In this document: one piece after another, positions 233 to 12,328 of the stretch
Layout of the letters: the number at the start of each line of letters is the position of its first letter
How positions within the stretch are numbered: position 1 is the stretch's first letter
Virus record (IMG/VR): IMGVR_UViG_649989948_000008
Coordinates: 1 to 39,032 of that record
From: a virus
Taxonomy: Duplodnaviria; Heunggongvirae; Uroviricota; Caudoviricetes
Length of the DNA stretch: 39,032 nt
Reading direction: 5' to 3' (one strand)
The notes under the pieces: model-generated
Databases searched by the model: none
What the model was told of the DNA's origin: nothing
The model's input: the letters and a program-made list of their open reading frames with translations, nothing else
Made by a program: the position numbers and the translations under genes

Positions 233-1828
233 GAATTTGTCGCGATACTCACCTTTTTTAGTGACATCCATCGTCGACCACTCAGCAGTAATATTCCCGT
301 CAGACAACGTATTGAGATACTCGGCAGTGCGTGTATTCAGGAAAGGCGTAACAGACGTCAAAATATGAGAACGCACCCCGGCAGGAGAGTAGACCTGACG
401 AGCTTTTTCCAATAGCAACGTTTGTTCCTGAATAGCCTTCAGCTCATCTTTTAAGGACTTGAAGGTAGACTTACTGGATACCAGGTTATCTTCGTGTCTG
501 GCGATAAGAGCAATAAACGGATTAATCTCTTTTGATATACGATCGACCTCAGTACGAGCACGAGTCACAAGAGACTCAATAGCAACAACCTCCTTCTCAC
601 GATGACGCAAAGATGAGAGTTGTTTCGTAAGCTCTTCAATCCGGGCAATGATAGCCGTTACATCAGGTGTCGTTTTAACAAGGGCAGACTCAATGCTTAA
701 CGCTTTCTCAAGATTCGTTTTGTGTTTAGCCATTGCCTCTGCAAGTGTCTTCGCCTGACCAATTTCCTGACGTGCTTGTTCAATGAAATTCTCCTTCACC
801 GTTGATAGATCTTCTTCGCAGTAGGCTTTGCCACAAGTAGGGCATGGTGATCCCACTTTAGTACCAACCTCTTCTGCTTTGGTCTTAAAATTACGCGCGC
901 GGTTCATTGCATCAGCCTGACTATTTTCTGTAGCTTTGATGCTTGCCCGAATATCAGTTATCGCACCACGAACTTTGAGCAACTTGGCGTCATGTTCTTC
1001 TTTTGAGGCTAACTTTTTGCGCTCACTTTCGATTGCCTTCTCGGTATCACGGATCTGTTCGGGAAGAGTGCGGATCTCAAGTTCAACTTCCGTTAACTCA
1101 ACTTCGGCACTTGCCAGCCCAGCCAGGGCATCGTCATAACGTTTAGAACGCTCTTGTTCCCATGATTCAGAAGAGGCTTTCGCGGACTCAATTTCTGACT
1201 GTGTTGCCTCAATGGTCGAGATTGTCGACTCCAATTTGGTTTTAACCACGTCCATGCGTGCGGCAGCTGCGTTAGCTCGTTCACGAGCAATAGCGTAGGC
1301 GCGTGTCAGTCTGTCAACGCCAGCGGCTTCTTCTACGATGGTTTTGAGGTTTTTGTCGGACATTCCAGGTAAATCTGGCATAGCTTCTTGGCTCGCATAG
1401 ATGGAAGCCATGAAAACCTCTTTAGATGCACCGATCAGACGCTCGACGAACTCTTGCGTCAGCGCATCTTTGCCTTTCGTCATATCGCCGTCTTCACCAC
1501 GAACGATAAGCCGATTTTTGAACTCTTTGTGTTTACGGTGACGAATGATCGCATATCTTTTGCCTTCATCCTCGATGGTTACTGCAACACGACAGTTCTT
1601 TTCATGGTCGGTAGACAACACATCGTCACCCTTCACACCATGAGCTGTTTCGCCATAAAGACACCACATCAGGCTATTCATTAGCGTTGACTTTCCAGAG
1701 CCATTACTTGATGCGGAACTATCATCACTATTAACACCCTGAATGAGCACTAAACCACGCTGATCTAACTCGACCTCCGCGCTGGCGATAGCCATAAAAT
1801 TCTCAACCTGGAGCTTTAAAAACTTCAT
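206..1828 (-). CDS. sbcC: SbcC/Rad50-like SMC ATPase, apparently C-terminally truncated by the IS66 end
   Basis: N-terminal Walker A (NGSGKSTLMNSL), long coiled-coil, central zinc hook CPTCG at residues ~329-333, second coiled-coil; the C-terminal ATPase lobe (signature motif, Walker B) is absent and the last 9 codons fall within the IS terminal sequence. ATG at 1828 preceded by AAGGTG. Confidence 0.65.
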   Translation of the reverse strand: MKFLKLQVENFMAIASAEVELDQRGLVLIQGVNSDDSSASSNGSGKSTLMNSLMWCLYGETAHGVKGDDVLSTDHEKNCRVAVTIEDEGKRYAIIRHRKHKEFKNRLIVRGEDGDMTKGKDALTQEFVERLIGASKEVFMASIYASQEAMPDLPGMSDKNLKTIVEEAAGVDRLTRAYAIARERANAAAARMDVVKTKLESTISTIEATQSEIESAKASSESWEQERSKRYDDALAGLASAEVELTEVELEIRTLPEQIRDTEKAIESERKKLASKEEHDAKLLKVRGAITDIRASIKATENSQADAMNRARNFKTKAEEVGTKVGSPCPTCGKAYCEEDLSTVKENFIEQARQEIGQAKTLAEAMAKHKTNLEKALSIESALVKTTPDVTAIIARIEELTKQLSSLRHREKEVVAIESLVTRARTEVDRISKEINPFIALIARHEDNLVSSKSTFKSLKDELKAIQEQTLLLEKARQVYSPAGVRSHILTSVTPFLNTRTAEYLNTLSDGNITAEWSTMDVTKKGEYRDKFVSVNGAPY

Positions 1829-2057
1829 ATAACACCTTTGATACCGTGTGTTAGCTTTTGACCTTCTTTCAATCTGAACTCCGTATGCGCCGGGAAGGAT
1901 CTGCGCCTCAATACGCCTTTTCTGGTTAACCTTCCAAGATAAAACGCTACGGGATTTCCTTGTGGCGGGTAGGGCTTGTGAAACATCACCGTCTGGCCTC
2001 GTTCAAGTCTTTTCATCGTGATGGCAAAGTCTCGAAAGCTCCCATAACGACTTTGCC

Positions 2058-3143
2058 TCACACAGCCTCCGAACTCTCCGCTTCGGTGAGGATTTCCTGA
2101 CACAAAATATCCAACTTGCTCAGATCAAATCCGCCGTCAGTATCGTGGACAATCTTGCAATAAGCAGATACCGACTCTCCCAGGCTATCGATTTTGCTGG
2201 TTTCCGTTGTGCTTGCTGTCCCTTCCATCATTGATGACTTACGGATGAAGTTGCACACGACACCTTTTGCACCCATTGTTTTGAGGATGTTCTGGTACTT
2301 AATGCCTTCTTCATCGTTCTCAATTACGGCGCGGAAACGCACGTAGTTGCCGCGAATTTGGTCATCGGCAACATAATCTTCCAGGTTAATGAATTTAGGC
2401 GCACTGGTTTCGTAGTGACTGAAACTGCCGTCCGGGTTTACGATCATGTAACCAGCCAGAGATCCAACATCTCCCCAATTTTGATGGGTCAGCGCACCGA
2501 CACTGATAACTCCAGGAATGACCTCTTTGTGGTTGTGGTAATGCCCACTAAGCACGAGACGAAAGCCGATATCCTTTAACTCCTGCGCATCGATACCGAC
2601 GTCAGGCATTGTTGGAATGGCTTTGTTAATGGATGTATGGATAACAACGTCATGATTATCACCTTCTACGCTCTTACGTAATGCTTTCAGATCGCTGATA
2701 AGCTCCGCATGATTGTTACGCCAGCTAATCAGGTGGACAGTCACATCACCAATTTTTATTGAGTGTGGGCGTTTGCCACATACGATTACCACGCCGATAG
2801 AACTCAGCGATGCTGCTGCGTTGGCGCTATATACTGAATCGTTGGTTTCAAGATCGTGATTACCGGCCAGCATTACTACTGTCAGATCAAGCTCGTTGAT
2901 AATCCACTTGTACGTTTCAGTTACGTAATGCAAAACAGAAGGGGACACAGTTCCTCGGACGTGAAATGTATCACCGGCAACCAACATGTACTTACAACCG
3001 GCCTTCTTCATGGCGATGGCTGCTTCTTTCGTTGCTTCCAACTGTATTTCAAGTCTGGAGTTAAGCCCCTCTGCGTTCGTCGTGGAGAACGCATCCCATT
3101 TGTGGTAGTGGCAGTCAGAAATGACGCCGTATGGCAAAGTCAT
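2058..3143 (-). CDS. sbcD: SbcD/Mre11-like calcineurin-type phosphoesterase (nuclease)
   Basis: Metallophosphoesterase motifs: D-x-H near N-terminus (SDCHYH), GDTFH, GNHD, GHYH. ATG at 3143 in the conserved start context. Confidence 0.7.
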   Translation of the reverse strand: MTLPYGVISDCHYHKWDAFSTTNAEGLNSRLEIQLEATKEAAIAMKKAGCKYMLVAGDTFHVRGTVSPSVLHYVTETYKWIINELDLTVVMLAGNHDLETNDSVYSANAAASLSSIGVVIVCGKRPHSIKIGDVTVHLISWRNNHAELISDLKALRKSVEGDNHDVVIHTSINKAIPTMPDVGIDAQELKDIGFRLVLSGHYHNHKEVIPGVISVGALTHQNWGDVGSLAGYMIVNPDGSFSHYETSAPKFINLEDYVADDQIRGNYVRFRAVIENDEEGIKYQNILKTMGAKGVVCNFIRKSSMMEGTASTTETSKIDSLGESVSAYCKIVHDTDGGFDLSKLDILCQEILTEAESSEAV

Positions 3144-4364: not shown

Positions 4365-5459
4365 ATGTCCACAAAAAATAAAAAAGGTAAAAATAACAAA
4401 GAAGTAGAAGATAACATCGACAACTTTGAAGAAGGTTCCCTTGAATTGTACACAGGGGAACTTGTCCCTAATAGCAACAATACAGTCCAACCAATTGCGT
4501 TGATGCGACTGGGGTTGTTCGTCCCCACGCTTAAGGGAACAAAATACAGTAAACGTAACAAGCCAAATGAGATCGATGCTTCAAAGGAGCTTGTCCAGCT
4601 CGAAGTAGCCCGTTCTGAAGGCTATTCCGATATCAAGATAACCGGTCCTCGTCTCGACATGGATCATGATTTCAAAACGTGGGTGGGCGTTGTGCGTTCG
4701 CTGGCAGAATACGGCGAACCTAACGGTCGTGTCGAGTTAAGCATCACGAAATTTGCTAAGTTTTGTGGCTATCCATCGTCACAGATCCGCAAAACACTCC
4801 GCGACCGGCTTACAAACAGTCTTTTGAAGATCATGCGTACAACTCTGTCTTTCCAGAGAACGTATGAAGAAAAGAACGTCGACGGCTCTAACAAGATCTC
4901 GCTTCTGATGGTGCACCTCATCAATAGCGTGGACTACAACGAGCAGAAAGATACGGTGGTGTTCTATGCAGAACCGAAGCTGGCCGAACTATATCGCTTT
5001 GACCATAAGGTTCTTTTGCAGTTAAAGGTTATCAATAAGCTACCACGCAAAGAAACAGCACAGGCTCTGTACACCTTCATCGAAAGTCTTCCAACCAAGC
5101 CTGCGCCGGTATCGCTTGCTCGATTGCGTGCGCGACTCAATTTGAGTAGCAGAAATGTCAGCTCGCAGAATCAGACTATACGTAACGGCTTAAAAGCTCT
5201 CCAAGATTTGGGCTATCTCGAATACAGCGAGATTAAGCGTGGGCGGTCGATCTATATCCAGATTCACAGCCGCAATCCAAAACTCAAAGTCGCACCGCCA
5301 AAACCTGAAGACATCGAACCCAAAAAACCAGATGAGAAAGCTGGGGAAATTGATGCCAAACAGAACATTATCAACAAGATAACCGAACTTTCGCAGAATT
5401 TGACGCCTGAAAATATCAAGATGATTGAGATCCTTTCCAATAGTCTCAAACTGCTTTGA
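4365..5459 (+). CDS. repA: iteron-binding replication initiator RepA (P1/RepFIB-like)
   Basis: 364-aa ORF flanked on both sides by iteron arrays; start chosen at the ATG at 4365 because the upstream in-frame part of the track ORF runs through the iterons. Family assignment rests on architecture and recollection. Confidence 0.65.
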   Translation: MSTKNKKGKNNKEVEDNIDNFEEGSLELYTGELVPNSNNTVQPIALMRLGLFVPTLKGTKYSKRNKPNEIDASKELVQLEVARSEGYSDIKITGPRLDMDHDFKTWVGVVRSLAEYGEPNGRVELSITKFAKFCGYPSSQIRKTLRDRLTNSLLKIMRTTLSFQRTYEEKNVDGSNKISLLMVHLINSVDYNEQKDTVVFYAEPKLAELYRFDHKVLLQLKVINKLPRKETAQALYTFIESLPTKPAPVSLARLRARLNLSSRNVSSQNQTIRNGLKALQDLGYLEYSEIKRGRSIYIQIHSRNPKLKVAPPKPEDIEPKKPDEKAGEIDAKQNIINKITELSQNLTPENIKMIEILSNSLKLL

Positions 5460-5576
5460 TATGCTGTCAGCGGTGAAATGTATGCTATCAGCGGCTATTT
5501 TTCTGAAAAGTATGCTGTGAACGGTTAAAGATATGCTACCAGCGGTATAGTGAGATGAACGTATGCTGTGAGCGGT
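5460..5576 (+). repeat. downstream iteron block 1 (5 copies), incA-like
   Basis: TATGCT(G/A)(T/C)(C/G)A(G/A)CGG(T/C) copies at 5460, 5481, 5511, 5533 and 5561. Confidence 0.7.
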
Positions 5577-5736
5577 AAATCATCTATCACCACTCAATGC
5601 TCTGTCATACCTCCCCAGTGGTTACTAACCTCGAAGAGTGCATTCCATATAGGTTTGCGCTCACTAACATTCTATTGCTATTGCGCTGATTGCTTGTAGT
5701 GAAAGGCATTTATTGCCTGCTACTCCCTGATAGAAC

Positions 5737-5991
5737 GTATGCTGTCAGCGGTGTTTTATTGAGGAATTTTTGTTTGGATATGCTATCAGCGGTAATTAAT
5801 GGTATATGTCAGACATTCGTATGCTGCCAGCGGTAATTTTGTTCTGGTTATACCCATACCGGGACACATTATTCATGCAATTTCTTAAGTATGCTGTCAG
5901 CGGTAAAAAATCGAGTAAAGTATGCTGTGAGCGGTGAGATAGACTCTCGATATGCTATCAGCGGTAGTTGATTGTGTATGCTGTCAGCGGT
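5737..5991 (+). repeat. downstream iteron block 2 (7 copies), incA-like
   Basis: Copies starting at 5737, 5779, 5819, 5889, 5920, 5951 and 5976; separated from block 1 by a 160-bp spacer. Confidence 0.7.
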
Positions 5992-6008
5992 GACGACTAT
6001 GAAATATG

Positions 6009-6030
6009 ACTGCGGAACGTGCCGCAGTCA
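6009..6030 (-). terminator. hairpin GACTGCGG-n6-CCGCAGTC just 3' of the 70-aa gene (weak U-tract)
   Basis: 8-bp perfect stem; the following T-run on the minus strand is poor. Confidence 0.3.
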
Positions 6031-6038
6031 GTTTGCAT

Positions 6039-6251
6039 TTAGTGTATTTTCTTTAACAGACCCCAAAGTGTTCCGGCTTTTGTAGTCAGTTTTCCTGTTT
6101 CTGGATCGTACATACGCCATTCACGCCGCTGGTGGACGATATACCCATCTTCACGTTCCAGACGCTCAAGAATGCCAGGCTGCTTGAAACCCTTAGCACG
6201 CCAGTAGCCGCTTGTTTTCTCGATTTCCAGACCTGCCAGTGTTAATGCCAT
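6039..6251 (-). CDS. hypothetical protein (70 aa)
   Basis: ATG start sharing one nucleotide with the stop of the upstream gene (TAATG). Confidence 0.4.
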   Translation of the reverse strand: MALTLAGLEIEKTSGYWRAKGFKQPGILERLEREDGYIVHQRREWRMYDPETGKLTTKAGTLWGLLKKIH

Positions 6252-6586
6252 TACCCAACCTCCTTGCAGTCATCGAAAAGGTAGCTTTGCTGAGAAGCGT
6301 GAACGCCATAGAAGCCCTTGTATTTGTTGTATACGAAGTGGTCTTCTCCGACGCCGGTTAATTTGCCATTACGATTTGTGAGATATGGGGATGACAACAC
6401 TCGATCGTCACGCACAACATAGAACTGGTCGCCGCTGTCTACGACCATCGCTCCATATGGTGCTTTTATGACGTCGGTAAGAGTGCCATTCTTAACGTCG
6501 GCTACAGACATTTCACACTGATAAACAGTGGTGTCGGCCACAACGATCGAAGAAAGAAACAACAGCGCGAATGGGATGGTCTTCAT
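6251..6586 (-). CDS. hypothetical secreted protein with N-terminal signal peptide
   Basis: MKTIPFALLFLSSIVVA signal-like N-terminus; RBS GAGGTGG upstream of the ATG. Confidence 0.5.
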   Translation of the reverse strand: MKTIPFALLFLSSIVVADTTVYQCEMSVADVKNGTLTDVIKAPYGAMVVDSGDQFYVVRDDRVLSSPYLTNRNGKLTGVGEDHFVYNKYKGFYGVHASQQSYLFDDCKEVG

Positions 6587-6762
6587 GCTGCCACCTCTTT
6601 GATTACATCAAATGCTGAATTAAATACGAGCACGATAGCCAAAGCGTTTATGACTACGTCGTGCACCGGGGAAAAGACTTTACGAATGACACCAGTGAAA
6701 ATGCAGTCGATGACAAAAGCTATTGAAACGATGAGTAACAAGTATTCAATAAAAATCTTCAT
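6583..6762 (-). CDS. small hydrophobic membrane protein (59 aa, below the ORF-track cutoff)
   Basis: Hand-translated MKIFIEYLLLIVSIAFVIDCIFTG...; stop overlaps the next start (ATGA). Confidence 0.35.
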   Translation of the reverse strand: MKIFIEYLLLIVSIAFVIDCIFTGVIRKVFSPVHDVVINALAIVLVFNSAFDVIKEVAA

Positions 6763-6875
6763 GATAGGTAGATACTAACTTATATAAACTTTACTGTAAA
6801 CTCACTCAAAAGTGCTGATGCTTAAAATACGCTCAAGATGTTCAGCATCTTCATTACTGATTTGTTGAGTCTCTT

Positions 6876-7076
6876 CTACGTCCAACAGTTGCCGTTATGC
6901 CAACAAACACCATCATCATCAACCATCACTGAATCAGCGTCATGACCTGTATATTCAACAAGAGTACGCTGGATCAGCGCGTCAGTTTCTTCATCGTTAA
7001 GGCCATCGACTTTGACCATAAAAAGCGGAAACACGTCATAGACAGTGCTGGTAACGATTCGAACTAAAACTCTCAT
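6876..7076 (-). CDS. hypothetical protein (66 aa)
   Basis: ATG at 7076 in the conserved CACAAAGGAAAAACACATG-type start context. Confidence 0.4.
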   Translation of the reverse strand: MRVLVRIVTSTVYDVFPLFMVKVDGLNDEETDALIQRTLVEYTGHDADSVMVDDDGVCWHNGNCWT

Positions 7077-7131
7077 GTGTTTTTCCTTTTTTGGTTAGTG
7101 TTTACTTATTTTGTTAGTTATGAATAGGCGA

Positions 7132-7557
7132 TCAATCTTCTTGGTTAGGGAAAAACTGTTCAATAACTCTGTCAACGGCTGTGTCTATATGGAGTAGATG
7201 CCACACAACCATATCTTTGCTTCCCATGCCTTGTGTGAATATCACGTCATACTTACGCCATGCGCAGTGGAACCAATATGCTGAGTCATCAATTGGTAAA
7301 TCCTCTCCCGCCTCTTTGAAGTATTTCAGCAGCATTGCCTGCTCTGCCGTTGGCGTTGGACCTATTTCCTGAGCGTACATACGGATGAATCGCTGCCAGT
7401 CTGTCTCGTCGGGGGTTGGATCTGGTGGGGTCATTTCTGCGATAGCGTTTCGTAGCTGATGCGCCCAATCAGGTTCAGGAAAGCCTTTTGCTACTTCATC
7501 ATCAATAACATCCAGAGCCACGTTTGCGGCATCGTAGAGTTTCTTAATAACTGTCAT
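7132..7557 (-). CDS. hypothetical protein (141 aa)
   Basis: ATG start preceded by the AAACAAATTGTTTTCTTA motif. Confidence 0.5.
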   Translation of the reverse strand: MTVIKKLYDAANVALDVIDDEVAKGFPEPDWAHQLRNAIAEMTPPDPTPDETDWQRFIRMYAQEIGPTPTAEQAMLLKYFKEAGEDLPIDDSAYWFHCAWRKYDVIFTQGMGSKDMVVWHLLHIDTAVDRVIEQFFPNQED

Positions 7558-7606
7558 GTTTTCTTATCCTTTTAAACAAATTGTTTTCTTAATAAGATAA
7601 TTTCGA

Positions 7607-7632
7607 TAAAAAAGGCGTCCAACTGGACGCCT
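7607..7632 (-). terminator. rho-independent terminator after the SPFH gene
   Basis: Stem AGGCGTCC/GGACGCCT with a 4-nt loop, followed by a T-run on the minus strand. Confidence 0.6.
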
Positions 7633-7648
7633 GAACTTTTTAGGGGAG

Positions 7649-8479
7649 TTATTTCACTGTAATGAAAGGAGTGTTAGCCCCTTGAGTCATGTACTGCGGT
7701 AACTGGCCATTCCATTTATTGATGGCTTCCAGTTCCATAACGTTCGGGTTTTGACGCAGAGCTTCACCGCGCAGACGAATGGCGTCTGCTTCTGCTTGCG
7801 CACGAGCACGGATAGCATCAGCTTCACCATTAGCCTGTTCACGTAGCATATTCGCCTCAGCTTTACGTTGTTCAACTTCCTGCTGACGTTGCAGAGTACG
7901 CTGGTTAGCCGTTACTTTGGCGTTGATAGATTCAATGACGGTTTTTGGGTAATCAGGCTTTCCAACCCATGACAGGCTCAGTACCTCAATACCAACCGGA
8001 GACATCTCTTTCTGAATGTCTTTCAGTGCGTTGTCCAGCAATTGCGCCTTACCACCGTCGATAAATGAGTCAGTGGTCATACGGCTGGCCAAACGGTTTA
8101 GAGAGTCGGCAATTTTCTGACGCAGATCTGATTCGGTGATATCGTCTACGCCTTTGCGATAGGTCTGGAACACCGTCGTTACCTTGTCACGATTAACCAG
8201 ATACGCAACGCCAATTTTGTGACCAATAGCAGTACCGTCACTCATCTGGAATGTGAACGGTTCGTCGTAGGTCTTCATTTGTTTGAAGGTCGGGAATACG
8301 TAAAGTTCGGTGTTAAGACCTGTCCATTGGCGACCAACGCCAACCACTTCACCGATCCCTTTGTCTTCACCTAATTTGTTTACTTTGATGCCAACGTATC
8401 CAGGCTCCACGCGATCACAGCCAGTAAGACCCATTGTGCAAATAGCCGCCAGAGCAACTGCAAGTAAACCTTTCTTCAT
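7649..8479 (-). CDS. SPFH/band-7 (prohibitin/flotillin-like) domain lipoprotein
   Basis: Signal peptide with lipobox LTGC; C-terminal Ala/Glu/Arg-rich helix QRKAEANMLREQANGEADAIRARAQAEADAIRLRGEA typical of band-7 proteins. Confidence 0.65.
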   Translation of the reverse strand: MKKGLLAVALAAICTMGLTGCDRVEPGYVGIKVNKLGEDKGIGEVVGVGRQWTGLNTELYVFPTFKQMKTYDEPFTFQMSDGTAIGHKIGVAYLVNRDKVTTVFQTYRKGVDDITESDLRQKIADSLNRLASRMTTDSFIDGGKAQLLDNALKDIQKEMSPVGIEVLSLSWVGKPDYPKTVIESINAKVTANQRTLQRQQEVEQRKAEANMLREQANGEADAIRARAQAEADAIRLRGEALRQNPNVMELEAINKWNGQLPQYMTQGANTPFITVK

Positions 8480-8482
8480 TAC

Positions 8483-8683
8483 TTATTTCCCCTTTGCTTT
8501 GATTAATGAGTTGATAAACTTACGACCAGCAATAAGACCGATTACAGGAGCACCAAAACCAACGATAACTCCAAACATGACGGCTAAATCACTCTTGGTA
8601 GAAATCAGCGACGGAACCAGTAAACCGTAGATGAGAGCCACTGAAACGCCTGTGGCTACTGCCAATAGATAGATTTTGATCAT
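8483..8683 (-). CDS. small two-helix membrane protein, possible partner of the SPFH protein
   Basis: 66 aa, two hydrophobic segments; 3-bp gap to the SPFH gene; conserved start context. Confidence 0.45.
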   Translation of the reverse strand: MIKIYLLAVATGVSVALIYGLLVPSLISTKSDLAVMFGVIVGFGAPVIGLIAGRKFINSLIKAKGK

Positions 8684-8746
8684 GTGTTTTCCTATGTGGT
8701 TGTTATGCGAAAATAATAAGTAAGTACTTATATATTTTCAAGAGAT

Positions 8747-8772
8747 AAAAAAGGCGTCCTGTGGACGCCTTG
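8747..8772 (-). terminator. rho-independent terminator after the RecA-like gene
   Basis: Stem AAGGCGTCC/GGACGCCTT followed by a T-run on the minus strand. Confidence 0.6.
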
Positions 8773-8775
8773 TGT

Positions 8776-11115
8776 TTACTCTTCTACTGACTCGGTGGGG
8801 TTGTCTTTTGCTCTTCGGTCGTCGATTGCCTGCAAAGCCGCAATGATTTCAGCCAGTGGCTTCTCCCGATACATCTCGACGATCTGCGATTTGGTGTATT
8901 TCTTGTCACCAATTTCAACTCGCCCGCTGGCGTTCTTTGGCAGGTATCCTTCTTCCAGCATGTACTCGACGAGCGATTCGATAACGTCGAGGCCACGAGT
9001 AGGATCGAAGTAGAATTTCCAGGTGCATTTGCCATACGGTGGTGCAACTTTGTTTTTGATGCATTCTGCGCCTACGTCCTGGCCGATCTTCTCTTTACCA
9101 TCCTTCATCACCGATGCACCAAGACGGATACGTACAGAAGCGTAGAACTTCGGTGAATCTCCACCTGGCGACGTAGTAGGGTCGCCAAACATTACACCGA
9201 TTTTTGTGCGAACCTGATTCAAGAAGATGATGCAGGCGTTGTATTTGCGTGCCCACAAAGCCAGAGTAGGGAAGTTCGCACTCGTCGCACGAGCCAGTGC
9301 CGTATTGTCGTTCATGTTTAGCTGATCTTTGTCTTTGGCTGTGCCTTCAGCCATCTTTTCGAACTTCTCGGCTTTGGAGTTCGGAACCATAGACGCAAGA
9401 GAGTCAGCCACGATACAGATAGGTGCTGATTCGGGGATAAGCTCTTCATCACGAACCAATTTAAGTATTGTGCCGATCAACTCTACAGAGTCTTCGAAGG
9501 TATCTGGCTGCTTGTATACCCACTGACCGTCATCCTCATCTGCGTTCAGGCCATTGGCTACAGCCAGGCCAACGTCAAAACTGTTTTCATGATCGAGGAA
9601 TACCGCCAGACCATCTTGTTTTTGAGCGGAGATCATCGCTGCTGTTGCAAGGAATGTGTTGTGGCTGATAATCCCGTTAGACCAGAAAGAGTGTGTTTCC
9701 GGCATCGCTACGTCGAACGTTGGTGCTTCACCTTCCTCAATAGCCACGACTTCGTCGTAGAACAAGTTAGAGCCAATTACCGCTGCCAGTTGTGCAAACA
9801 GATGCTCGTTAAAACGATTCTTTCTGCCAATGAAGGAGACATAGATTTCTCGCAGTTTGTCTATTCCGACACGATCGCCGCGGCCAATAACGTGGTCTAC
9901 CAGAGCGTAGTCTTCACGGGTGGTCTTGGTGAGCGACTCGTAGAGTGATTTCACTAAGCCGCTGATGTGCGGAACATAGCCTGAGTAAGTGCGGTCAAAA
10001 CCAATGTCCCGTTTGGTTGCCACTGATAAACGTGCCGGAGATTCGAAACCAATCGTTGACAGAAAAAGGTCGTAATTAGAGCCACTGAATGACAGCCGGT
10101 AATATGTATTTTCATAACCCGCGACGTGTTTTTCAGAGATAGTTGACGTAATCCCCAGATTCAGGAGCATGAGGCGAATTTGCTGTAGCAGCAGCCCACT
10201 CGCGCTCACAACCTCAATGCAGCGACCATCATTGACGTGGCATTCCAGCTCAAAGTAGCCGCGAAGGAATGCAATTTGAGCCTCGCTATTGGCGCGACGC
10301 ACACTCAACGGAACCTGCTTGCCAGCAGCTTTCTCATACTCCAGACCATATTCTTTAAAAAGCAGCGAACGCACCTCTTTGCTAAACAGCACATGGTCTT
10401 CCGAGCCGTTATGTTTTCTCGTAACTGGCATCTTGTCTGATACCAGCGAAATGAGGCGGTAGTACTCATCCTTGATGAAAGGATCTGTGTTAGAAAAATT
10501 CACTGAATTTTCAGAGGCCACGTATCCGTCAGCAATTAAATAGCCCATCAGTTTTGCGATATTGGCATCCAGGTGCTGATCGCCGAATTGATGTGTGCCA
10601 ACCATTGAAGGAATCGTGTCGCCTACACTGATTTTTTCAGCATGTCGCCAGACGACATTACCTAAGTCGTCAACCACACGGATTGGGTGACGGAACGTAG
10701 CCTCGATATAACCGCCTGATGCCAGCTTAATACGCTTGAATTTGCGACGGTTGTTCCATGTCAGGTGTGAGGTCTTCTCTATCACGCCATTTTCATTGAT
10801 GAGTCCAACGTTATGCTCTACATCGCGAGTAGTGCATGTCGCTTTGTACCCTTCAATCTCAAACAACTCTTTCACTGTTACCATTCCACGCTCCGTCAGC
10901 AGCATGGTGTCTGCGGTAACACATTTCCCCGCGCTTGGTGGCCCGAATACTTCTACGATACGACCACATGGGAAACCGCCATCGTAACGACCGGAAATCG
11001 CTTTGTTTAACGGAGGAAAGCCTGTGTCAATCCAATGAGTTACTTTCTGAATTTCGTCGTTGCTACCGATTTTCTTTTTCAGAGCAAGTGCCAGTGCGGA
11101 TTTTCCTTTTGCCAT
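8776..11115 (-). CDS. recA: RecA-family recombinase interrupted by an intein (779-aa precursor, ~357-aa predicted mature protein)
   Basis: Exteins resemble RecA: GRIVEVFGPPSAGK|..|TFLA (Walker A), VFLDHENSFD, VMFGDPTTSPGGDSPKFYASVRIRLG; ATG with AGGAG RBS. Confidence 0.8.
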   Translation of the reverse strand: MAKGKSALALALKKKIGSNDEIQKVTHWIDTGFPPLNKAISGRYDGGFPCGRIVEVFGPPSAGKCVTADTMLLTERGMVTVKELFEIEGYKATCTTRDVEHNVGLINENGVIEKTSHLTWNNRRKFKRIKLASGGYIEATFRHPIRVVDDLGNVVWRHAEKISVGDTIPSMVGTHQFGDQHLDANIAKLMGYLIADGYVASENSVNFSNTDPFIKDEYYRLISLVSDKMPVTRKHNGSEDHVLFSKEVRSLLFKEYGLEYEKAAGKQVPLSVRRANSEAQIAFLRGYFELECHVNDGRCIEVVSASGLLLQQIRLMLLNLGITSTISEKHVAGYENTYYRLSFSGSNYDLFLSTIGFESPARLSVATKRDIGFDRTYSGYVPHISGLVKSLYESLTKTTREDYALVDHVIGRGDRVGIDKLREIYVSFIGRKNRFNEHLFAQLAAVIGSNLFYDEVVAIEEGEAPTFDVAMPETHSFWSNGIISHNTFLATAAMISAQKQDGLAVFLDHENSFDVGLAVANGLNADEDDGQWVYKQPDTFEDSVELIGTILKLVRDEELIPESAPICIVADSLASMVPNSKAEKFEKMAEGTAKDKDQLNMNDNTALARATSANFPTLALWARKYNACIIFLNQVRTKIGVMFGDPTTSPGGDSPKFYASVRIRLGASVMKDGKEKIGQDVGAECIKNKVAPPYGKCTWKFYFDPTRGLDVIESLVEYMLEEGYLPKNASGRVEIGDKKYTKSQIVEMYREKPLAEIIAALQAIDDRRAKDNPTESVEE
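9658..10923 (-). mobile_element. intein with LAGLIDADG homing-endonuclease domain (422 aa) inserted in the RecA P-loop
   Basis: Starts with Cys (CVTADTMLL), TxxH block (ATFRH), LAGLIDADG blocks (LMGYLIADGYV, FLRGYFELECHV), ends ...ISHN followed by Thr; junction codons checked by hand. Confidence 0.8.
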
Positions 11116-11117
11116 GA

Positions 11118-11390
11118 TCAGGCTCCTTTTGTTTCGTTGATTCGTTTTAAAGCGGCGGATTCGTCGAATACAATCGCATCGTGGTTAAGGAGTCTGGATA
11201 CACGAGCGAGGATTTTTACGACCTGCTCGCTGACTAATCCAAACTCGCGATCTGTCGCTTTCATTCCGGCAGCGCCTAGAATTGACGGCAGTGCGATGAC
11301 AGCGTACTCACCGTGATAAAAGACAATCTCTTTTGCCAGTTGGGCAGGGGTGGTTGTAGCGCCATTAATAATCGATTTAAGCATTAGCAA
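11118..11390 (-). CDS. hypothetical protein (90 aa)
   Basis: ORF between the exonuclease and the RecA-like gene; no motif recognised. Confidence 0.35.
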   Translation of the reverse strand: MLMLKSIINGATTTPAQLAKEIVFYHGEYAVIALPSILGAAGMKATDREFGLVSEQVVKILARVSRLLNHDAIVFDESAALKRINETKGA

Positions 11391-12328
11391 TACCTTTCGA
11401 ATGGAAGAACAAACACTTCAAGGTCTTCAAGGAACGAACGGAAATTCAGCTCGTAGCACAGTTGCTCGAATGCTTTCACGTCACGATTGCCTTTGATTGT
11501 TTCGATTTCGGTAGGCGGAAACTTCGTCTCAATCAGGTTCATTAGCGTGATGTTTCTCTTGAACGCTTCGAGCATTCGACAGCCTGTTTTCTCGTTGAAG
11601 GCATTCTTCGCTAGTTTGTTGAAGGCGGTCTTATGGCGTCCTTTGTCAACCACGATTGAGCCGTCGTTGATGCCGCGTACCATCGTTGCGACACTTCCCC
11701 ATTCATGCAGCAGCTCTTTCGCACCGCCAGCACCAATGCCACCAACACCGCTAATGTTGTCCGATTTATCGCCTTGTAATGCTTTTGCTTCCAAAAATGC
11801 GCGAGGAGTAGCGAATCCTGTCAGCTCCGCAAATTGCTCAAAATTAACCTGCTTGTTTTTGGCGTCTTCGCGCAGGCTTACCCAGCTTACGTTTTCGCGA
11901 ACTAACTGAAGCCAGTCGCTATCGCCTGTTAACAGATAGATGTGTTCAACGATTGGCTGCGGTGCAATGCTGGCTACCAGCAGCCCGGCCAGATCATCCG
12001 CTTCTGCATCTTTTGCAATGAGTTGGGTAACTCCAAGCGCGGTCATCATTTTGAGGATGTATGGCTTCTGGATAGCAAAGCCTTCCTTCATCTTTTTCAT
12101 ATCAGGATCGTCGTCGCGATTTGCTTTGTAGTCCGGGTAAAAGTCGCGACGCTTGTCACTAAATCCATCCCAAAGAATCATAGGTCGGGCATGGAGGATG
12201 GAGGCATAACGACGGACGTTCTTAACAAAGCCGAAAGCAGCCTGTACTTCCATTTCGCCGTTGTGCAATTTGTCAGATTGTTGGTGGTAATAACCCAGGC
12301 TATTGCCATCTACGAAGAGATAATTCAC
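11384..12328 (-). CDS. 5'-3' exonuclease / flap endonuclease (T4 RNase H / T5 D15-like)
   Basis: N-terminal LFVDGNSLGYY and H3TH motif GDKSDNISGVGGIGAGGAKELL. The track ORF starts at 12379, but that part overlaps a terminator hairpin; a GTG at 12328 with RBS GGAAGGA is the more likely start. Confidence 0.7.
   Translation of the reverse strand: MNYLFVDGNSLGYYHQQSDKLHNGEMEVQAAFGFVKNVRRYASILHARPMILWDGFSDKRRDFYPDYKANRDDDPDMKKMKEGFAIQKPYILKMMTALGVTQLIAKDAEADDLAGLLVASIAPQPIVEHIYLLTGDSDWLQLVRENVSWVSLREDAKNKQVNFEQFAELTGFATPRAFLEAKALQGDKSDNISGVGGIGAGGAKELLHEWGSVATMVRGINDGSIVVDKGRHKTAFNKLAKNAFNEKTGCRMLEAFKRNITLMNLIETKFPPTEIETIKGNRDVKAFEQLCYELNFRSFLEDLEVFVLPFERYC

Follow-up and report, generated by a model that had tools for sequence, protein, structure and literature searches.

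A two-gene unit for an SPFH lipoprotein and a small membrane hairpin in an SSU5/pHCM2-type phage-plasmid: organisation, distribution and a tentative role at the inner membrane

Organisation of the locus

The function of bacterial SPFH proteins is a long-standing question, and the best-understood cases are either hetero-oligomers (HflK/C) or proteins paired with NfeD. In the stretch of 39,032 nucleotides analysed here (the window; IMG/VR record IMGVR_UViG_649989948_000008), which belongs to a phage-plasmid of the SSU5/pHCM2 type, a gene for an SPFH (Band_7) lipoprotein of 276 amino acids (7649..8479, minus strand) is preceded by a gene for a 66-amino-acid protein with two predicted transmembrane helices (8483..8683, minus strand), designated hairpin protein in the following. 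The two open reading frames (ORFs) are separated by 3 nucleotides (nt), and the cassette is flanked by RepA and Cra on one side and by an intein-containing RecA on the other. The original prediction, which had placed the pair in a mobile element between the replicon and the recombination genes, thus described its setting correctly.

Both ends of the cassette are marked by predicted intrinsic terminators. The upstream boundary is formed by the terminator of recA (8745..8771, minus strand), which consists of the stem-loop GGCGTCC-aca-GGACGCC followed by a T-run (-14.7 kcal/mol, z -6.65) and whose conserved stem shows a compensatory change in Yersinia pestis pMT1. Next to it lies a putative sigma-70-type promoter (8713..8741, minus strand; TTGAAA-17 nt-TATTAT), which with 10 of 12 matches is the top promoter-like site in 5800..11400. 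Its spacer holds a 10-bp palindrome, TAAGTACTTA (8721..8730), which is a candidate operator. The promoter core including the palindrome is nearly invariant in the window, in the Escherichia phage Cyrano, in the Salmonella phage SSU5, in an IMG/VR relative and in pMT1, and the sequences flanking it vary. Elsewhere in the window TAAGTACTTA has only weak matches with two mismatches, which give no sign of a regulon, and the idea that the palindrome is a repeated operator was rejected.

Translation of the hairpin gene is presumably initiated from the Shine-Dalgarno sequence AGGA (8690..8693), and the Shine-Dalgarno sequence of the SPFH gene, GGGG (8489..8492), is located within the 3' end of the hairpin gene, which suggests translational coupling. 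The cassette is closed by a second intrinsic terminator (7605..7632, minus strand; GGCGTCC-agtt-GGACGCC plus T-run, -15.1 kcal/mol, z -5.86). The two terminators share their stem arms and tail (GGCGTCC-N3-4-GGACGCC-TTTTTTAT), a combination found at these two sites only in the 39-kb window and expected zero times by chance; it may be a trace of cassette insertion or a sequence favoured by recombination. Judged by these sequence features, the pair is an autonomous unit composed of a terminator, a promoter, two coupled genes and a terminator.

The SPFH lipoprotein and its hairpin partner

Both properties originally ascribed to the larger protein, an SPFH domain and a lipid anchor, were supported. 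The Pfam profile Band_7 (PF01145), a search that could have spoken against the assignment, matches residues 23-209 over profile positions 2-176 of 176 (E=2.6e-30, 106.2 bits versus a cut-off of 23.6), and the PHROG match is phrog_200 ('lipoprotein', E=3e-108). The N-terminus MKKGLLAVALAAICTMGLTG-C21-D22 contains a signal sequence and the lipobox L-T-G-C21 with aspartate at position +2 (pattern [LVI][ASTVI][GAS]C plus Asp at +2), the codon for Cys21 being located at 8417..8419. This cysteine is at least 90% conserved across 81 family members, and the lipobox is found by regular expression in 93 of 143 distant representatives. Aspartate at +2 is the inner-membrane retention signal of E. coli lipoproteins. 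It is strongly supported by these sequence properties that the 276-amino-acid protein is a lipoprotein tethered to the inner membrane with its SPFH domain in the periplasm.

The protein is composed of signal and lipobox (residues 1-21), SPFH domain (21-176), a long helix (179-243), a short helix (245-255) and the C-terminal motif K-W-N-G-x-L-P, of which W256, G258 and P261 are invariant in the alignment of relatives. The AlphaFold2 (AF2) model of the monomer, built on an alignment of 81 relatives, has a predicted local distance difference test (pLDDT) score of 92.2 and shows an anchor helix, an alpha/beta SPFH domain (strands within 21-95 and 164-176), a single 65-residue helix (179-243), the short helix and an extended tail. 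When the full chain was compared by Foldseek, HflC/HflK were the best matches (2e-14), followed by prohibitin, erlin, stomatin, flotillin, QmcA and the major vault protein, with a probability of 1.00 for HflC/K, prohibitin, erlin, stomatin and flotillin. A sequence profile searched against the PDB retrieved PHB1 (2.5e-10) and HflK (2.6e-7), the values for HflK/HflC ranging from 1e-7 to 1e-6. All solved structural relatives form rings or domes on membranes, and those formed by HflK/C and prohibitin are located on the non-cytoplasmic face. According to the model, and with strong support, no part of a cage former is missing from the protein, which combines an anchor and an SPFH domain with a long helix for oligomerisation, a second, short helix and a tail at the C-terminus. 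Taken by itself, the SPFH gene is unremarkable and had been annotated before.

The resemblance to HflC/HflK and prohibitin, which are the nearest solved relatives by fold as well as by profile, raises the alternative of an HflK/C mimic that controls FtsH. The cage would capture or shield FtsH or compete with the host HflK/C, thereby shifting the stability of phage regulators (as for lambda CII and CIII) or of host substrates and tuning lysogeny or takeover. Such a role, which has been guessed by several authors for phage copies (PMC4936722; PMC10269572), would fit the fact that the SPFH domain, like that of HflK/C, follows an N-terminal anchor and is predicted to lie on the periplasmic side of the membrane. 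The NCBIfam matches, albeit to hflC and hflK, are weak and far under the equivalog cut-offs (30.2 versus 134.4 bits for hflC, TIGR01932; 18.7 versus 159.4 bits for hflK, TIGR01933), and the sequence identity is 16-18%. Moreover, there is one SPFH gene instead of an HflK/HflC pair, and the family is common in strictly virulent phages, which have no lysogeny decision to make. We consider control of FtsH distinctly unlikely as the function of the pair.

The hairpin protein agrees with the two-helix membrane protein of 66 amino acids originally proposed. Its AF2 model (pLDDT 85.9) shows helices at residues 2-28 and 32-65. The protein has a hydrophobic core, its C-terminal tail is basic, and it matches phrog_1130 ('membrane protein', E=9.3e-26). 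Alignments of diverse hairpins revealed an invariant P24 and S28, which form a turn P-x-x-Φ-S at the end of helix 1 (Φ, hydrophobic residue), a conserved Pro46 in helix 2 and the basic tail. No Pfam match was obtained at E<=0.1 and no NCBIfam match. When 20 diverse hairpins were searched at E<=1, NfeD was not among the 25 most-matched Pfam families, which represent scattered weak matches to membrane proteins, and the hairpin profile found neither a YbbJ/NfeD chain nor any other solved chain above chance in the PDB at E<=10. In a collection of 5.8 billion proteins, nearly all named relatives are 'hypothetical' or 'uncharacterised membrane protein', stray names being DUF3149, YdjX and putative gp37/Gp49. 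As far as can be judged from these comparisons, the hairpin family with its invariant P-x-x-Φ-S turn is undescribed.

An SPFH operon had been proposed for the locus, with an NfeD-like domain in the small protein as one item to be checked. The operon arrangement holds with respect to the adjacent, co-oriented genes, but the equivalence to operons with an NfeD partner does not. In such a classical operon, the small protein would be a minimal NfeD inside the cage, as YbbJ in QmcA. Gene order and co-orientation are indeed those of many NfeD-SPFH operons, the partner is a membrane protein, and QmcA is among the Foldseek matches. However, the hairpin has no NfeD domain (PF01957) and no YbbJ match, and with 66 amino acids it is too short to hold the OB-fold, so that an NfeD identity was rejected. 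In addition, the SPFH domain of QmcA is cytoplasmic, whereas that of the window protein is predicted to be periplasmic. An NfeD-type operon is scarcely credible under these circumstances.

The hairpin gene is constantly associated with the SPFH gene. In all loci from IMG/VR and reference genomes whose upstream region was long enough (82/82), the SPFH gene directly follows an ORF for a hydrophobic protein with the turn motif, most often with the 3-nt gap seen in the window (n=43) or with an overlap of 20 nt (n=34), less frequently with one of 1 nt (n=4) or 4 nt (n=1). In reference-genome loci with SPFH identities down to 31%, a hidden Markov model (HMM) of the hairpin detects the partner upstream or fused in 61 of 80, and more divergent or fused hairpins beyond these were recognised by eye. 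A representative search with the SPFH protein yielded 2,816 clusters at E<=1e-3, 195 of them at E<=1e-30, and in at least 14 lineages (proteins of 320-390 amino acids, mutually less than 50% identical) a partner-like hairpin is joined to the SPFH domain in a single protein, where it is recognised by the hairpin HMM with E-values from 1e-8 to 3e-4. The fusions are composed of the hairpin, a charged linker, a third hydrophobic helix, which often still ends in a lipobox, and the SPFH domain. The only topology compatible with this layout places both ends of the hairpin in the cytoplasm, its turn in the periplasm and the SPFH domain in the periplasm. A physical partnership of hairpin and SPFH protein is strongly indicated by these natural fusions, and it is strongly supported that the 66-amino-acid hairpin is a dedicated partner of the SPFH protein with both ends predicted to be cytoplasmic. 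Together with the short gap or overlap, the fusions suggest co-production, possibly in matched amounts.

Size, two helices, the N-in/C-in topology and the basic tail are also properties of class II holins, and the tight coupling of the hairpin to the SPFH gene would suit a permeabilising toxin that the SPFH cage keeps inactive until its release sets the time of lysis or aborts an infection. Hairpin-SPFH fusions in many lineages are, however, unfit for a toxin that has to be freed from its inhibitor, the hairpin has no dual-start motif, and the element has its own lysis cassette of holin, endolysin and spanin (Rz/Rz1) genes about 30 kb away, as deduced from the collinear genome of Cyrano. For this last reason, the hairpin was rejected as the class II holin of the lysis cassette. 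In coliphage N4, whose gp19 and gp20 are orthologous to the pair, the lysis and lysis-inhibition mutations named in the available portion of a preprint on N4 lysis map to gp61 and gp63, and neither gp19 nor gp20 is mentioned there. A caged holin-like effector is a highly improbable explanation.

Several loci deviate from the usual arrangement. In chromosomes of E. coli and Shigella flexneri (L088 and L089), an IS1-like element of about 770 bp with an InsA-like ORF (5234..6000) is inserted exactly between the hairpin and SPFH genes, uncoupling them and altering the C-terminus of the hairpin. Loss of the hairpin from these two loci was considered and rejected, as the gene is present there upstream of the insertion. 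In the virulent phages KpS8 and U47, a small soluble ORF of 54 amino acids (2329..2493) and two ORFs (2000..2443), respectively, intervene between the two genes, so that strict adjacency is not essential. A third type of hairpin occurs with two C-terminal versions, one of 78 amino acids with a 20-nt overlap with the SPFH start (L050, 3784..4020) and one of 72 amino acids with a 1-nt overlap (L079, 1126..1344); the two versions part after ...FFREK, beside an A-run, which suggests a frameshift polymorphism.

Distribution, variation and expression

By tblastn, the SPFH protein was found in 377 phage records. Among temperate phages it is carried, for example, by Stx2a phages, phiP27, a P1-like phage, the P2-like phage P88 and Burkholderia phage phi1026b, and among strictly virulent ones by N4-like Schitoviridae, Bruynoghevirus, Mydovirus, 340-kb jumbo phages, phiCbK-like phages, a crAss-like phage and Lak megaphages. 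Inspection of 17 diverse phages showed a clear hairpin in 14, a weak one in two (the crAss-like phage and phiEa104) and none in the remaining phage, CcrSwift. Orthologous pairs, all of which share the turn motif of the hairpin, are N4 gp19/gp20, SSU5_061/062, P88 gp11/gp12, phi1026b gp49/gp48 and CYRAN_56/57 of Cyrano. In N4, gp19 is a hairpin of 68 amino acids with the sequence LLPSMVSALDS, and gp20 is 64% identical to the window SPFH protein (E=2e-130); the corresponding identities are 100% for Cyrano and 77% for P88.

The orthologues are named 'lipoprotein', 'serine protease', 'membrane protein' or 'hypothetical' in the database records, and the hairpin gene is present yet unannotated in phiP27 (about 2290..2480), Pokken (711..869) and the P1-like phage MH445381 (723..896). 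The small hairpin gene is systematically missed in the annotation of public phage records.

The pair is not confined to phages but is also a resident chromosomal module. In two species of Dyella, it is flanked by BlaR1/BlaI-like genes on one side and by ribonucleotide reductase genes on the other, and in Xenorhabdus by the gene for a major facilitator superfamily transporter and flhA. The Dyella locus (L104/L100, 2900..9200) is conserved, with the pair beside a BlaR1-type sensor protease (Peptidase_M56) and a BlaI-type repressor, which hints at a link to the sensing of envelope stress.

The two genes differ in their rates of change. The window and Cyrano have identical SPFH proteins (dS 0.04) but hairpins with 71% identity (dS 0.63). 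Among close relatives, the ratio of nonsynonymous to synonymous substitution rates (dN/dS) lies at 0.11-0.43 in the hairpin gene and at 0.00-0.03 in the SPFH gene; these low values indicate that both genes are real and under purifying selection, and positive selection on the hairpin is not supported. A sliding comparison with Cyrano showed that a block comprising the 3' end of recA, the terminator, the promoter and the hairpin gene (about 8480..8880) has 62-86% identity, with flanks of 96-100%. The block extends from about 400 nt upstream to the start codon of the SPFH gene, where its boundary is located, and the hairpin and the control region have been swapped as a unit by recombination. The megablast homology of Klebsiella SSU5-like phages begins exactly at the recA terminator (about 8750).

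A hairpin that diverges fast and is swapped by recombination next to a constant SPFH protein would be expected if the pair served superinfection exclusion or anti-phage defence, with cage and hairpin stopping the entry of competitor DNA at the inner membrane in a manner similar to T4 Imm and Sp and with the hairpin as the specificity determinant. The pair belongs to the early or middle genes of virulent phages and to early operons of temperate ones, and in phage Moo19 it adjoins a gene annotated as superinfection-exclusion-like. Furthermore, curing an entire SSU5-like plasmid from Klebsiella pneumoniae increased the plating of three lytic phages 10-100-fold, an effect of the whole plasmid and not of this gene (PMC8969562). 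Against exclusion, PADLOC-DB v2 contains zero families matching either protein at E<=1, by which membership in a known defence system was rejected; the pair is stably chromosomal outside prophages in Dyella and Xenorhabdus; and dN/dS of the hairpin is below 0.5, with no overall sign of positive selection. The literature searched for SPFH proteins in prophages, phage defence, superinfection exclusion and N4 gp20 offers annotations and guesses only and no exclusion or defence role, and the reason for an SPFH gene in phages was called unclear as recently as 2026 (PMC13239085).

Expression data are available for Cyrano in its host E. coli LF82 (PMC9928086), given there in S1 Table as log2(fpkm+5), i.e. 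from fragments per kilobase per million, with two replicates per condition. Thirteen Cyrano 'morons' were reported to be expressed in lysogeny broth (LB), and CYRAN_56 and CYRAN_57 are not among them. The hairpin gene CYRAN_56 is at the floor in LB (2.32/2.32), reaches 4.98/4.89 after 1 h and 3.48/3.09 after 6 h in medium, and rises in macrophages from 3.48/5.06 at 1 h to 7.61/7.70 at 6 h. For the SPFH gene CYRAN_57, the values are 4.30/3.02 in LB, 5.01/5.24 and 5.00/4.76 in medium, and 5.60/5.32 and 7.25/7.42 in macrophages (1 h and 6 h, respectively). Of the neighbours, upstream RecA remains between 3.1 and 4.2, and downstream CYRAN_58 does not exceed 4.2 (all values from PMC9928086). Compared with these neighbours, the two genes appear co-regulated and independent of both the neighbours and lytic induction, off in ordinary culture and on in macrophages, and since the promoter core is conserved, the macrophage induction probably applies to the present element by analogy.

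With respect to exclusion, the Cyrano data place the unit at the read floor in LB-grown lysogens, whereas known prophage exclusion genes are on in lysogens. Silence under ordinary culture conditions speaks against an exclusion or defence role that is constitutive in lysogens, and on the whole we regard superinfection exclusion or anti-phage defence as unlikely.

Induction inside macrophages is also what would be expected of a virulence factor acquired by lysogenic conversion. The window lipoprotein might be exported to outer-membrane vesicles and act on the animal host as an agonist of Toll-like receptors 1 and 2 (TLR1/2) or on capsule, adhesion or serum resistance, as claimed for PM0222 of Pasteurella multocida. 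PM0222 is prophage-borne, HflK/C-like, 25-35 kDa in size and present in vesicles, and its deletion attenuates virulence in mice (PMC9872710). The similarity to PM0222 is one of description only, however, and the +2 aspartate as well as the fusions with a hairpin of the inner membrane point to that membrane rather than to vesicles. Moreover, activation of TLR1/2 is a property common to all triacylated lipoproteins. Since carriers of the family also include virulent phages and phages whose hosts are environmental bacteria, for which a role in an animal host would be senseless, a virulence function is very unlikely.

The assignment of the element to the SSU5/pHCM2-type phage-plasmids rather than to simple plasmids is based on the relatives of the 6-kb surroundings of the cassette, which share 97.6-97.9% identity with the Escherichia phages Cyrano and PhiR41_1, about 79% with SSU5 and 99-100% with many E. 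coli 'plasmids' of 107-113 kb, nearly all of them non-mobilizable. The sole 100% identical record, NZ_CP146657.1, is an E. coli plasmid of 198 kb, about twice the usual 107-113 kb, and may be a cointegrate with another replicon. In the collinear genome of Cyrano, CYRAN_56/57 come last in a long array of co-directional genes for replication and recombination, which encode helicase, primase, ligase, DNA polymerase III alpha, UvsY, a gp32-like single-stranded-DNA-binding protein, exonuclease and RecA, and are followed by small genes, Cra and RepA.

As to the neighbouring genes, the RecA-like protein of 779 amino acids (8776..11115, minus strand) contains an intein of about 414 amino acids with a LAGLIDADG homing-endonuclease domain, which interrupts the Walker A P-loop (FGPPSAGK / C...SHN / TFLATAA). 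The intein is polymorphic, because RecA of SSU5 has 358 amino acids and no intein and some near-identical relatives cover just 79% of the region. The gene directly downstream of the cassette (7132..7557, minus strand) encodes a DUF7238 protein (E=5e-38; PHROG 1451, unknown function), and a database entry, P0018 (303 amino acids), in which Band_7 and DUF7238 are fused, is probably an artefact of assembly or gene calling. About 1 kb downstream of the cassette, a hydrophobic ORF of 59 amino acids (6583..6762, minus strand) with promoter-like sites of its own (6800..6761) is homologous to CYRAN_60, which is induced even more strongly than the pair, from 2.32 in LB to about 7.0 after 1 h and about 8.6 after 6 h in macrophages (PMC9928086).

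Proposed function and comparison with known systems

Our preferred interpretation is that the two ORFs form one self-contained transcription unit for a two-component inner-membrane complex, an HflK/C-like cage with a hairpin co-subunit, which protects the membrane under stress or during infection; we advance it tentatively, as somewhat less than an even chance. In this model, the lipoprotein would assemble into a homo-oligomeric ring or dome of the HflK/C or prohibitin type on the outer face of the inner membrane, and the hairpins would provide the ring of transmembrane helices that is absent from lipid-anchored subunits. Cage and hairpins together could then fence off a patch of membrane. In the least certain step, the pair might preserve the function of the inner membrane during envelope stress or phage infection by enclosing membrane or a membrane client, possibly for quality control of the FtsH type. 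Protection of the membrane is favoured over superinfection exclusion and over control of FtsH because of the macrophage-specific induction, the occurrence in virulent as well as temperate carriers, the copies on chromosomes and the roles that HflK/C are known to have under stress (PMC10434171). A role in membrane upkeep would explain why the same pair has been retained by temperate and virulent phages and by some chromosomes.

Several points weigh against this interpretation. No homologue has been experimentally shown to protect membranes, and the oligomer, the complex and the localisation derive from AF2 models of monomers and from sequence. The stress-protection role is based on a single transcriptome, that of a relative whose hairpin is just 71% identical, though the promoter core is conserved, and the integrase, the repressor, CYRAN_46 and CYRAN_60 of Cyrano also rise in macrophages (PMC9928086). 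No hairpin was detected in some Cytophagales loci, in a few others and in CcrSwift, so that the hairpin is not universally required by members of the family. Finally, the hairpin evolves much faster than its partner, the identities between the window and P88 being 25% for the hairpin and 77% for the SPFH protein, and a fast, recombining hairpin would also fit the specificity determinant of a conflict system.

A broader proposal, which we consider possible though on balance unlikely, is that the pair is a widely conserved phage device, found in N4, Stx and jumbo phages and, with weaker evidence, in crAss-like phages. It would be a minimal periplasmic homo-oligomeric SPFH cage controlling a universal inner-membrane process, acting either as a seal against competitor DNA, which would represent a new general class of exclusion, or by capture of the FtsH type, and the swapped hairpin would be its specificity module.

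In our literature search, no description was found of the fusion-backed hairpin-SPFH partnership, of its periplasmic orientation or of its breadth including N4. The pair offers a compact alternative to the SPFH systems studied so far, as it comprises one SPFH gene and a 66-residue partner, is predicted to face the periplasm and is under selection in hundreds of phages of opposite lifestyles and in some chromosomes. Its identity with N4 gp19/gp20 makes it accessible in a classical, genetically tractable phage-host system, and if the model is true, it would provide structural biology with a small homo-oligomeric cage having a defined membrane co-subunit. The phage-plasmids concerned are those of clinical E. 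coli, Salmonella, Klebsiella and Y. pestis (pMT1), and the induction in macrophages suggests a possible contribution to host fitness. In practical terms, several reference annotations lack the hairpin gene.

Among known systems, T4 Imm, a small protein of the inner membrane, and Sp, a periplasmic one, which this virulent phage produces early for superinfection exclusion, resemble the pair conceptually and in function only; they are unrelated in sequence and fold and do not form an SPFH system. PM0222 of P. multocida is, by description, a prophage SPFH protein of similar size, but it was reported in outer-membrane vesicles, whereas the window protein is predicted to be retained at the inner membrane (PMC9872710). 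Closer in gene organisation are QmcA-YbbJ (8z5g) and FloT-YuaF of Bacillus subtilis, in which the SPFH gene is co-transcribed with a gene for a small membrane protein thought to be located with or inside the ring; in contrast to these SPFH-NfeD operons, the window partner has no PF01957 domain, OB-fold or similarity to YbbJ, and the SPFH domain is predicted to be periplasmic instead of cytoplasmic. The closest solved relative by sequence profile is mitochondrial prohibitin PHB1/PHB2 (8rrh, 9o9z). Its cage is bell-shaped and sits on the non-cytoplasmic face of an inner membrane, but it is a eukaryotic hetero-oligomer with transmembrane anchors and no hairpin partner. The best full-length structural match is the E. 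coli HflK/HflC-FtsH complex (7vhp, 7vhq, 7wi3, 9cz2). The window protein differs from HflK/C in being the product of a single gene (and presumably a homo-oligomer), in its lipid anchor in place of a transmembrane helix, in the low identity given above and in its two-helix partner, which is absent from HflK/C, and it shares with them the order of an N-terminal anchor, a periplasmic SPFH domain, a long helix and a C-terminal cap segment.

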